NCBI GenBank assembly: GCA_040767805.1
Contig: JAXGNU010000004.1
Location: 32,001 to 96,000 of the forward strand
Source of the DNA: Thermovirgaceae bacterium
GTDB lineage: Bacteria > Synergistota > Synergistia > Synergistales > Thermovirgaceae
Reading direction: 5' to 3'
DNA: 64,000 bases
Position numbers and translations under genes: made by a program. Under the pieces are notes generated by a model. It ran no database searches, was not told the DNA's origin, and saw only the letters and a program-made list of their open reading frames with translations. The first letter of the stretch is position 1; every line of letters starts with the position of its first letter. This document shows positions 8,896 through 10,548 of this stretch, in pieces.

Positions 8896-9061
8896 CCGTG
8901 AATCGTAAGTCGTAAATCGTGAGTCGTAAGTACCGTGAATCGTGAATCAGAAGAACCGTGAATCGTGAGTCGTAAATCGTGGGTCGAAAACCGTGAATCG
9001 CAAGGTCAAATTCATAGGCTGATCGTTTTGCTTTTACGTTTTGCTCTTACGATTCACGACT
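8896..9061. repeat. Heptamer tandem array (CGTGAAT/CGTAAGT/CGTAAAT/CGTGAGT) with an inverted arm, continuing at 10370-10388 after the IS
   Basis: About 14-15 units on + at 8897-9003; reverse-complement units CTTACG-ATTCACG-ACT at 9046-9061 and TACG-ATTAACG-ATTAACG at 10370-10387. Confidence 0.9.
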
Positions 9062-9074
9062 CGTATATTCTTTC

Positions 9075-9264
9075 GTCGGTTCTAAAATGAACCCTGTAAG
9101 GCAGTAGGTTTCGGGACGGCGAAGACCGATTTACGACTGAGGCCCTAGAGCCTGTTCGTAAGATAGGTCTAGTCGTTCCCACCGAGAACGGACGGTATGC
9201 TTGGGGCCCGGTAAGCCCGCATTTACGAGGCCGTTCCCTGGGAACAATGCCGTCCCGACAAACC
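9075..9264 (+). ncRNA. Bridge RNA (target-binding loop followed by donor-binding loop)
   Basis: Outer stem TCGGGACGGC 9111-9120 / GCCGTCCCGA 9249-9258; guides TTTACGACT 9130-9138, TCGTAAG 9156-9162, ACGGTAT 9192-9198, TACGAG 9224-9229; 5' and 3' ends approximate. Confidence 0.88.
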
Positions 9265-9297
9265 AACTGTAGCATTTCCTACGGGGGTGTTGAAGCT

Positions 9298-10314
9298 ATG
9301 AACCAATGTTTTGTCGGGATCGACGTCAGCAAGAAGCAGATCCATGTCTGTGTCCTTGGCGAAAAGCCCCATCCCTACCCGAACTGCCTCACCGGGTTCC
9401 GGAAGATGATGAAAAGCCTCAGGGAGAAGAAACCCCATGGCGAAGAGACCTTCTTCCTCATAGGGATGGAGGCCACCGGTGTCTACCACCTCAAGCTCGC
9501 CACCTTCCTGAAGGACGAGCCCGATGTGGCCGTTTACGTCCTGAACCCCGCCCAGGTGAAGAGCTTCTTCAAGGCCTCCTTCCACAGGACCAAGACGGAC
9601 GCCATAGACGCCTGCGGCATAGCTTCGTGCACGGAGTTCCTGGTCAAAAGGGACAAGGTCCGTGCCTTCGAGACCCCCGACAACGAGGTCGAACGGCTCA
9701 GGCAGCTCTGCCGCCGCCGGGAGGAGATCCTCTCCATGGTCCAGATGGAGAAAAACAGGATCGAAGCCTTGAAGGAGGTACCATCCCACTCCGGGGAAGT
9801 GGAAAGCTCCCTCCTGGAGCACCTGGAGTACCTGGAGCAGCGCCTTAAGGATATCGAAGAGAAGATCAAAGGACACATACGGAACTCACCGGGACTCAAA
9901 GAGCAGGTGGACCTCCTCAAGTCGATACCGGGCATTTCCGATACCGCTGCCGCCGGACTCATCAGCGAGATTCGCTGCGCCGAGCGGTTCGACAATGTCA
10001 AGGAGCTGGTCGCCTTCGCGGGATTAGCGCCGGCGGAAAGGACCTCCGGTACCTCCGTGAAGGGCAGGACCTGCATCTGCAAAACTGGTTCGTCCAGGCT
10101 GAGGAAGCACCTCTACATGCCCGCCCTGGTCGGCATAAGATACAACCCCCTGCTGAAAGAGTTCTACGAAAGACTGACGAACCGCAACAAGCCCAAGAAA
10201 GCCGCTCTCATAGCCTGCATGCGCAAACTGCTTCACATAATCTACGGGGTCCTGAAGAACAGAACCGCCTTTGACCCCCTTTGGGCGAAGAACAGGTTCG
10301 CCATGGCCTGTTGA
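9298..10314 (+). CDS. IS110-family DEDD recombinase/transposase
   Basis: GIDVSK, GMEATG, KTDAID (DEDD); SIPGI, AFAGLAP..RTSGTS with the catalytic Ser region; start MNQCFVG. Confidence 0.96.
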   Translation: MNQCFVGIDVSKKQIHVCVLGEKPHPYPNCLTGFRKMMKSLREKKPHGEETFFLIGMEATGVYHLKLATFLKDEPDVAVYVLNPAQVKSFFKASFHRTKTDAIDACGIASCTEFLVKRDKVRAFETPDNEVERLRQLCRRREEILSMVQMEKNRIEALKEVPSHSGEVESSLLEHLEYLEQRLKDIEEKIKGHIRNSPGLKEQVDLLKSIPGISDTAAAGLISEIRCAERFDNVKELVAFAGLAPAERTSGTSVKGRTCICKTGSSRLRKHLYMPALVGIRYNPLLKEFYERLTNRNKPKKAALIACMRKLLHIIYGVLKNRTAFDPLWAKNRFAMAC

Positions 10315-10548
10315 AACAGATCGGCTTATGAGGGTTCATTATTTTCAAGGTTGACGGAAGACGGTATCTTACGATTAACGATTAACGGCCCTTTTATGGA
10401 TGAAGCAGATCAAAGAGGTTAAGGCCTCGGTCAATTAGTACCAGTCAGCTCAAGGCCTCGCAGCCCTTACACCTCTGGCCTATCGATCACGTAGTCTCCG
10501 TGTTACCTTACCCGCTTTATCCGCGGTGAGTGGTCTCATCTCGGGGCC

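Follow-up and report, generated by a model that had tools for sequence, protein, structure and literature searches.

An IS110-Family Element with a Predicted Bridge RNA Directed to Tandem Heptamer Repeats in a Thermovirgaceae Bacterium

Introduction

The homing of IS110-family insertion sequences (IS) to repeats of their hosts has been on record since 2006, and their RNA-guided mechanism since 2024. Here we analyze a member of this family lying within a stretch of 64,000 nucleotides, hereafter called the window, from an uncultured anaerobic-digester bacterium of the Thermovirgaceae (contig JAXGNU010000004.1 of assembly GCA_040767805.1, positions 32,001 to 96,000; coordinates below are those of the window unless a contig is named). 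Among the described systems closest to it is IS621 of Escherichia coli, in which 129 of 173 mapped insertion sites correspond to the natural target ATCAGGCCTAC and two to ATCGGGCCTAC, the perfect match of the guides; in this system the left target guide (LTG) pairs with the bottom strand and a paired CT core is strongly preferred (PMC11208160). Site-selective insertion into multi-copy intergenic repeats of the host is also described for the IS110-family elements ISPpu9, ISPpu10 and ISPa11, whose repeats are repetitive extragenic palindromes (REP), tied in several species to REP-associated tyrosine transposases (RAYT) (Tobes and Pareja 2006, PMC1525189; PMC12288879; bioRxiv 10.64898/2026.03.19.712850). 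Elements of the IS1111 subgroup with a seekRNA share with the present one a DEDD transposase and the selection of a specific site through an RNA guide (Siddiquee et al. 2024, PMC11187229).

The results of our analysis indicate, with a probability that we put at about 0.88, that the window carries a bridge-RNA element whose target loop reads two adjacent units of a heptamer repeat. The element resembles IS621 (Durrant et al. 2024, PMC11208160; Hiraizumi et al. 2024, PMC11208158) in the domains and catalytic residues of its recombinase, in a left-end non-coding RNA with a target loop followed by a donor loop, in a 9-nt LTG that includes the core, in a right target guide (RTG) directed to the top strand, in a CT core duplicated at both junctions and in having a family of intergenic repeats as natural targets. 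In both systems, moreover, the abundant target is one G:U-type pair off the perfect complement of the guide; here, TTCACGA is found at 13 and TTTACGA at two of the 15 cognate sites in 41 related genomes. It differs from IS621 in its recombinase, which falls in the class of ~35% identity (E 2.5e-41), in targeting not a REP palindrome but the point where two tandem 7-base units meet, in an RTG of 7 nt instead of 4, and in target guides that are mutually complementary and predicted to pair with each other, because both halves of the target are the same heptamer unit. Usable sites are also few by comparison, since most unit junctions carry TT and not CT.

With respect to ISPpu9, ISPpu10 and ISPa11, the repeat targeted here is a lineage-restricted degenerate heptamer minisatellite, confined to one family and five genera and showing no association with Y1 transposases in the test that was made. 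A sequence-only reading of the window had proposed a parallel with the pairing of IS621 and REP, which holds for a bridge element aimed at repeats; the arrays, however, may be called REP-like in role only, by analogy, as they lack both ~35-base palindromes and a link to Y1 transposases. Their unit is a 7-base tandem repeat and not the imperfect palindrome of ~20-40 bases that defines REP sequences and bacterial interspersed mosaic elements. The statements of that reading about the sequence itself are confirmed by our analysis, and its interpretation as a whole is partly supported. Judging from the sequences compared, the tandem-unit target, the self-complementary loop and a scar in the guide gene, described below, would represent modest new twists on a known theme.

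Insertion Sites and Empty Alleles

The assembly (G000) comprises 1.65 Mb (1,654,126 bases) in 29 contigs and is 80.6% complete. In the window, the IS interrupts one arm of an inverted heptamer array (table 1); with slashes marking the boundaries of the core, its left junction reads ..CTTACGATTCACGA/CT/CGTATATTC (CT at 9060-9061) and its right junction ..GACGGTAT/CT/TACGATTAACGATTAACGG (CT at 10368-10369). Excision of 9062-10369, namely of the IS with one CT, leaves CTTACG ATTCACG ACTTACG ATTAACG ATTAACG, in which the 7-base phase is unbroken; these five units are the reverse complement of the forward array, just as the sequence-only reading had reconstructed. All three genomic copies of the IS abut heptamer units in a single phase, TTCACGA/CT/TACG. 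Copies A (contig C4, the window) and B (C6:71619-72924) are 100% identical across 1306 bases and both read TTCACGA/CT ... CT/TACGA, their flanks being unrelated beyond; copy C (C2:125986-126330), 5'-truncated and 98% identical, has TTCACGA/ on its left and CT/TACGG on its right. Array arms occupy only 1432 of the 1,654,126 bases of the genome and yet three out of three copies abut them, so that chance is not a credible explanation.

The sister genome G004 retains the empty allele of site B, reading GGGAACCACGATTCACGACTTACGATTCACGATTTACGCACAGGG (in the context ..GGGAACCACGATTCACGACTTACGATTCACGATTTACGCACAGGGAGG..), which corresponds letter by letter to copy B minus the IS and one CT and thus holds a single CT. 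In its 23S-5S spacer, which is free of the IS, forward arm and centre are the same and four reverse units are present, but with other unit variants and no CT junction. The empty-site reconstruction at the rRNA operon (rrn) thus holds for architecture and phase, though not letter by letter. The comparison with other rrn copies that had been envisaged finds no second operon, since one 5S gene and one 23S 3' end in the whole assembly indicate that a sole rrn operon was assembled.

The orthologue of site C reads ATTCAAGACCTACGG. At this orthologous site of G004 (locus L202, 1440-1480), the left flank of copy C appears as the original target half. Copy C itself (C2:125986-126351, locus L090) is without the first 978 bases of the IS and without the left CT, its left breakpoint lying within one base of the boundary between left target (LT) and core (..ATTCACGA/GGACCTCC). 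A site-specific event was considered for this truncation, but the internal breakpoint (equivalent to window 10039/10040) has no CT on that strand. The junction of copy C recurs in contigs of three of the four runs examined.

Bridge RNA and Guides

Upstream of the start codon, the IS has 236 bases whose predicted fold reaches a z-score of -4.17 relative to shuffled sequences. We aligned the left end with those of four relatives, locus L113 (86% protein identity) and loci L082, L083 and L084 (44-49%). The five-element consensus consists of an outer stem plus two stem-enclosed internal loops, with 40 consensus pairs of which six show compensatory changes; the loop strands, that is the guide columns, vary among the five elements while the scaffold is conserved. 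Comparison of this RNA with Rfam gave no family at the gathering score or at E values up to 10, the best hits (E ~2 or worse) being at chance level.

The first loop carries TTTACGACT (9130-9138) on its 5' strand and TCGTAAG (9156-9162; reverse complement CTTACGA) on its 3' strand, so that an LTG-like 9-mer and an RTG-like 7-mer, 26 bases apart, face each other across one internal loop. Together they encode the target TTTACGA-CT-TACGA, which is simply two adjacent heptamer units, in agreement with the sequence-only reading. In 20,000 shuffles of the left end, a 9-mer with at most one mismatch to the real flank and, 10-45 bases downstream of it, the exact RTG 7-mer were obtained together only once. 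The occupied site, TTCACGA-CT-TACGA, is one position off the guide. What had been described as mismatch tolerance of the left guide does concern this one position, but since the LTG base-pairs to the bottom strand, T versus C at LT position 3 amounts to an rU:dG wobble; it is of the same kind as in the natural target of IS621 and therefore follows a precedent.

On these grounds we propose the following mechanism. The left end of the element would encode the bridge RNA and its single gene the DEDD/serine recombinase. The two target guides would jointly specify TTYACGA-CT-TACGA, the junction of two units of the intergenic minisatellite (ATTYACG)n, and targeting would be limited to those junctions in which the minor variant CT (unit ACTTACG) replaces the usual TT. 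The guide U at position 3 would face the degenerate R of the repeat, pairing with A by Watson-Crick geometry and with G by wobble, in such a way that both unit variants could be read; wobble at this R/Y position of the repeat may be adaptive. The donor loop (ACGGUAU.. plus UUACGAG) would read the joined ends of the element itself, ..ACGGTAT-CT-CGTAT. Insertion would duplicate the CT; the copy of the window is inserted within the 23S-5S spacer, in the inverted array's reverse arm. Joining of the ends could also create a promoter, TTGACG-N15-17-TATATT/TATTCT, resembling by analogy that of IS621, from which the RNA might be expressed; in IS621, a junction promoter is formed on the joined ends (PMC11208160, PMC11208158).

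Table 1. Features of the IS110-family element and of its surroundings in the window
Feature	Position	Strand	Remarks
5S rRNA gene	8767-8882	-	Rfam RF00001, 89.1 bits; follows the IS in the rrn transcript; no other 5S in the assembly
Forward heptamer arm (CGTRART)n	8897-9003	.	Tandem Repeats Finder, period 7; array scan C4 40897-40998 = window 8897-8998
Unoccupied exact match to TTTACGA-CT-TACGA	8903-8916	-	Reads TTTACGACTTACGA; only exact match in the 1.65-Mb assembly
Centre between inverted arms (..AAGGTCAAATTCATAGGCTGATCGTTTTGC..)	9004-9046	.	Same centre in the IS-free spacer of G004; similar at the copy C locus and the G001 scar locus
Reverse arm, left part	9047-9059	+	LT TTCACGA at 9053-9059; LT identical at copies B and C
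Left CT core	9060-9061	+	Copies A and B have CT at each junction; the empty orthologue of B has it once
IS110-family insertion sequence	9062-10367	+	1306 bases without cores; identical second copy and 5'-truncated third copy
Bridge RNA, approximate limits	9100-9265	+	Predicted; outer stem 9107-9120/9249-9264 encloses two internal loops
LTG UUUACGA-CU	9130-9138	+	8/9 match to LT plus core, the ninth a U:G wobble; covaries with flanks in G001 and L113
RTG UCGUAAG	9156-9162	+	Pairs with top-strand CT-TACGA; exact 7-mer reverse complement of 10368-10374
Left donor guide (LDG) ACGGUAU(GCU)	9192-9201	+	Seven bases = right-end terminus ACGGTAT, 10361-10367; conserved in all five aligned elements
Right donor guide (RDG) UUACGAG	9223-9229	+	6/7 complementary to CT-CGTAT, left-end terminus
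Recombinase gene, 338 aa	9298-10314	+	Antisense to the rrn operon; Pfam and PDB matches
TTGACG, possible -35 only after circularisation	10351-10356	+	15-17 bases before TATATT/TATTCT at 9064-9071; by eye, putative
Right CT core and reverse arm, right part TACGATTAACGATTAACG	10368-10387	+	CT at 10368-10369; sequence; Tandem Repeats Finder
23S rRNA gene	10415-13601	-	Rfam RF02541; 3' end 46 bases from the IS

Recombinase and Family Membership

The recombinase matches the Pfam domains DEDD_Tnp_IS110 (PF01548, 2.1e-25, residues 6-158) and Transposase_20 (PF02371, 1.4e-24, residues 205-291), and in the PDB it matches ISCro4 (1.5e-42) and IS621 (2.5e-41). Its D9, E58, D101, D104 and S250-G251 align with D11, E60, D102, D105 and S241-G242 of IS621 (chain 8wt6_A, a two-residue offset being allowed for), whose catalytic roles are described in PMC11208158. 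The reading frame is open and these catalytic residues are intact. Within the IS, 236 bases precede the gene and 53 follow it, and the ends of the element (CGTATATT.. and ..ACGGTAT) form no inverted repeats by eye. In the IS1111 subgroup, the non-coding region is downstream of the gene. It is there described together with subterminal inverted repeats (PMC11187229). By its sequence features, 9062-10367 is best classified as an intact insertion sequence of the IS110 family, IS110 subgroup, which is probably still active.

A search of 268 genomes of the phylum found the IS only in G000, plus a scar in the genome G001, and the plasmid and phage collections contained no match to its DNA. The search of genome contigs for related loci returned only relatives of at most 39% identity, of no use for mapping insertion sites; of the 80 loci kept from metagenome contigs, only L113 and L114 are close.

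Covariation of Guides and Targets in Relatives

In L113, whose recombinase shares 86% amino acid identity with that of the window, the LTG reads TTCACGT-CT and the reverse complement of the RTG reads CT-CACGC, the RTG GCGUGAG matching the flank CT-CACG of the same element. Its flanks are ..TTTCCGT/CT on the left and CT/CACGT on the right (CT/CACGTCTCACG), so that the guide changes at LT7 (A>T) and at position 1 of the right target (RT1, T>C) are both tracked by the flanks and the target is a junction of heptamers of ACGTCTC type. The scar of G001 has LTG TTTGCGA beside the flank CTTGCGA, thereby tracking LT4 (A>G). Guide and flank thus covary at three positions, taking the two related elements together. 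Contigs of an independent run add a fourth left flank of array type (flank D), which has ACGTCTC-type units and ends with CTCACGA/CT (..ACGTCTCACGTCTCACGA/CT). Overall, six sets of junctions lie in arrays (copies A, B and C, the G001 scar, L113 and flank D) and two do not (L114 and flank E), although L114 and flank E could be two sides of one event.

The scar of the congener G001 is a solo left end (locus L194, contig C14, bases 345 to 160, minus strand), in which an array-plus-centre element, ..TCTTGCGA/CT/, precedes ~76 bases from the start of the left end, 94% identical to the window; the left end stops after the guide-encoded TTTGCGA-CT and is joined directly to the array-type TACGGCCCTTACGATG. 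What has been deleted therefore begins exactly behind the core encoded by the LTG and extends to the right-end junction, which would reflect either use of the guide gene as left half-site by the element's own recombinase or slippage between guide DNA and an identical array unit. The metagenome contig of L113 contains, in a further array element (2100-2260), ATTCACGACTTACGATT without an insertion, a site cognate to the window IS and not to the resident relative.

A second IS110 lineage is represented in sister genomes by L083 (G012), L084 (G004) and L082 (G032), with recombinases 44-49% identical and the same two-loop RNA scaffold. It sits in another family of intergenic repeats, with units like CACCACAGGGGACACAGAG, often arranged as tandem repeats of ~50-100 bases, and the reverse complement of its RTG, CTCTGCGG, is by eye an exact match to the flank of L082.

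The Heptamer Repeat Family

Tandem Repeats Finder reports 14.3 copies of consensus CGTGAAT at 8897-9000 and 2.4 copies of ACGATTA at 10371-10387. Genome-wide, the arrays consist of tandem 7-mers, sometimes in inverted pairs around a conserved centre, and amount to 39 arms of 21-102 bases in 26 loci; 22 of these loci are intergenic and the other four overlap only the 5' ends of stop-to-stop frames (as judged with a crude model of open reading frames and GC content at third codon positions). Among 41 related genomes, triple-unit matches occur in 11, all of one family, with no match to the reversed pattern used as control; arrays are present in 10 of the 18 other members of the family, spanning genera g1-g5, and in none of 22 genomes from other families. 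The IS was not found in the other array-bearing genomes, 10 relatives in total, from which it follows that the repeats are older than the IS.

At the 96 in-phase YACGA-NN-YACG junctions, NN is TT in 75 cases and CT in six. The cognate 14-mer occurs in 8 of the 11 array-bearing genomes and in none of the 30 without arrays; in its exact form it is found unoccupied once in G000 and 0-4 times per relative. The claim of many intergenic landing pads is accordingly borne out for the arrays (39 arms in 26 loci) and reduced for the sites proper, given a CT core at 6 of 96 junctions and a single empty exact 14-mer.

The exact site at 8903-8916, which had been noticed beforehand on the minus strand, is indeed the sole perfect match in the genome, 144 bases from the occupied site, against an expectation of 0.004 from base composition. 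It lies on the strand opposite to the occupied one, and in one RNA-library contig it is altered by A>G at 8902 and 8907. Insertion there would set the recombinase gene sense to rrn, with inverted IS copies ~150 bases apart.

None of the three Y1_Tnp genes of the genome has double heptamer units within 1.2 kb, a test that did not distinguish RAYT from IS200-type proteins. A full-text literature search for the doubled heptamer in either orientation returned no occurrence, and in a paper on IS110 bridge RNAs the term "tandem repeat" denotes duplication of cargo and not a target.

Weighing the Proposed Mechanism against Alternatives

The sequence-only proposal that the recombinase is aimed at the heptamer family is sustained by the phase of all three copies, the exact empty site of B in G004 and the covariation of guides with targets. 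Several observations nevertheless weigh against the mechanism proposed above. Relatives were expected to lie always in arrays at ACGA-CT-(T/C)ACG; this applies to the three genomic copies but not to L114, nor to one or two left flanks from the runs. L114, a partial copy that covers the last 663 bases of the IS at 97.6% identity and resides in a lower-GC context (44% GC), has the non-array right flank CT/TACACC.. (CT/TACACCTTTGAG..), which fits five of seven RTG positions, its left end and guides lying off the contig. In two of the four runs (X14 and X15), 472-base contigs join the left end to the non-array sequences ..GTGTAGGT/CT and ..GCGCACGT/CT. Even L113 shows two true mismatches, at LT positions 3 and 4, to its own LTG. 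As to the RNA, the core positions of the LDG are GC and not CT, and both the minimum free energy and the centroid folds pair LTG with RTG, so that in the free RNA the loop may not be open. The four runs examined consist of assembled contigs, in which RNA ends, strand, circle junctions and transposition events are not visible. Finally, the rarity of exact sites weakens the idea of the arrays as abundant landing pads; a fitness benefit of the arrays as a harbour would be hypothetical.

The alternative that survives best, although we regard it as improbable, is that the association with arrays is a fixed relic of the past activity of an ancestor, the present copies being immobile. The scarcity of copies, two full and one truncated, would fit such a relic, as would the recurrence of the same three junction types in contigs from several studies (2018-2023), the nearby exact site left unused and a self-pairing target loop that could inhibit the element. 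Conversely, complete identity of copies A and B over 1306 bases, an open reading frame with intact catalytic residues, the further junctions of flanks D and E in other runs and the 97.6% copy, whose host differs in GC content, all speak against it.

Quite unlikely, in our judgment, is a structural preference for AT-rich arrays with hairpin-forming inverted arms, the guide match being incidental or DNA structure acting as a co-determinant as for ISPpu10. The arrays do often form inverted arms able to fold into hairpins, the target stem-loop of ISPpu10 is described as its second specificity determinant (bioRxiv 10.64898/2026.03.19.712850), and the exact site at 8903-8916 is empty while a wobble site 144 bases away is occupied. 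Yet insertions are found at one phase and one type of junction instead of being spread across the arrays, three guide changes are mirrored in the flanks, ordered guide matches are as rare as 1 in 20,000 shuffles, and the site of copy B has just a short reverse arm, with a weak forward arm ~170 bases away. The view that the heptamers flanking the IS are its own terminal repeats, or cargo that it carries, and were not a pre-existing target can be dismissed: the BLAST match of copies A and B does extend 13 bases past the left and 18 past the right junction (window 9049-10387), but the flanks are unrelated beyond those bases, the unit sequences of the right flank differ between copies, 10 related genomes carry arrays without the IS, and the same flanks are uninterrupted at the orthologous loci of G004, where the exact empty site refutes this explanation.

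Targeting of unit junctions by the bridge RNA thus being preferred, one may ask, rather tentatively, if this is a bridge-RNA lineage co-evolving with the minisatellite of its host, in which guides would have been rewritten for the variants ACGA-CT-TACG, GCGA-CT-TACG and ACGT-CT-CACG with the wobble of the guide U covering both R/Y forms. We consider this view doubtful. With a tandem repeat as target, the complementarity of LTG and RTG would let the predicted target loop close on itself, a possible built-in brake, and the DNA encoding the LTG would be a perfect left half-site, the G001 scar then being a natural product of recombination at the own guide gene of the element.

IS110 bridge elements are known to seek out intergenic repeats of the host genome, and the locus offers a clean natural instance of this rule, complete with an exact empty allele and guide-target covariation within one lineage, from a bacterium distant from the Proteobacteria in which such elements have so far been studied. 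For the design of bridge RNAs it adds a tolerated rU:dG at LT position 3, parallel to the rG:dT of IS621, a functional-looking target loop with mutually pairing guides, and a deletion scar suggesting that guide-encoding DNA can act as a half-site.

Ribosomal Context, Metagenomes and Other Intergenic Repeats

The rrn operon occupies the minus strand, with the 16S gene at 13747-15352 upstream of the 23S and 5S genes (table 1). The 23S-5S spacer measures 1532 bases because it contains the 1306-base IS. The processing stem of 23S rRNA, in which 10395-10424 is complementary to 13594-13623 at 93%, is outside the IS, which lies 26 bases beyond the 3' strand of this stem and 178 bases from the 5S gene. 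That an IS is tolerated between the 23S and 5S genes of the only rrn operon assembled raises the question of how 5S rRNA is supplied through 1.3 kb of antisense IS. Scans of the integrated locus for promoters and terminators gave zero of each, and no intrinsic terminator was predicted within the IS on either strand; 5S rRNA is therefore presumably still produced by transcription that crosses the IS antisense to the recombinase gene.

The spacer is hypervariable among close relatives. In the congener G002 (L094, 1400-1490), a 23S 3' end 100% identical to that of G000 is followed by a short spacer with a different heptamer, AACAGTC/AACAGTA, and in G005 (L101, 1050-1500) CGTNAAT and ACGTCTC arrays lie on both sides of the 5S gene.

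The stretch occurs in sludge and digester metagenomes: of the 24 runs listed, which come from 12 studies, 20 hold at least half of the sampled words, and two are marked as possible sources. Contigs from other studies (runs dated 2018-2023) show the three junction types of G000 again. Contigs of runs X5, X6 and X14 identical to window ~8819-9078 carry only 17 bases of the IS, less than the 31 letters demanded by our bridging rule; the left junction is bridged only by a contig from the RNA library of X15 (8803-9109), which may derive from DNA. No contig skipping 9062-10369 was reported in the four contig-only runs, a result uninformative on the IS-free allele. A joint of 8879 to 10448 in run X5 (side 25, five other letters) looks like the short 5S-23S spacer of another organism and was not used.

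Several heptamer arrays are directly adjoined by a motif of ~35 bases, GGGGTCAGACCTTGAATTTGAGCAATTGTATAC, the sites of this motif and of the further repeats named below being, in G000, C6:14690, C6:21440, C7:4470, C4:107700 (reverse complement), C7:25560 (reverse complement), C14:13270 and C8:15750. Further intergenic repeats of this genome include runs of the CGGAAAC heptamer, runs of GCCAAG-type hexamers and degenerate purine-rich tracts, and the intergenic DNA of the lineage looks unusually rich in minisatellites.

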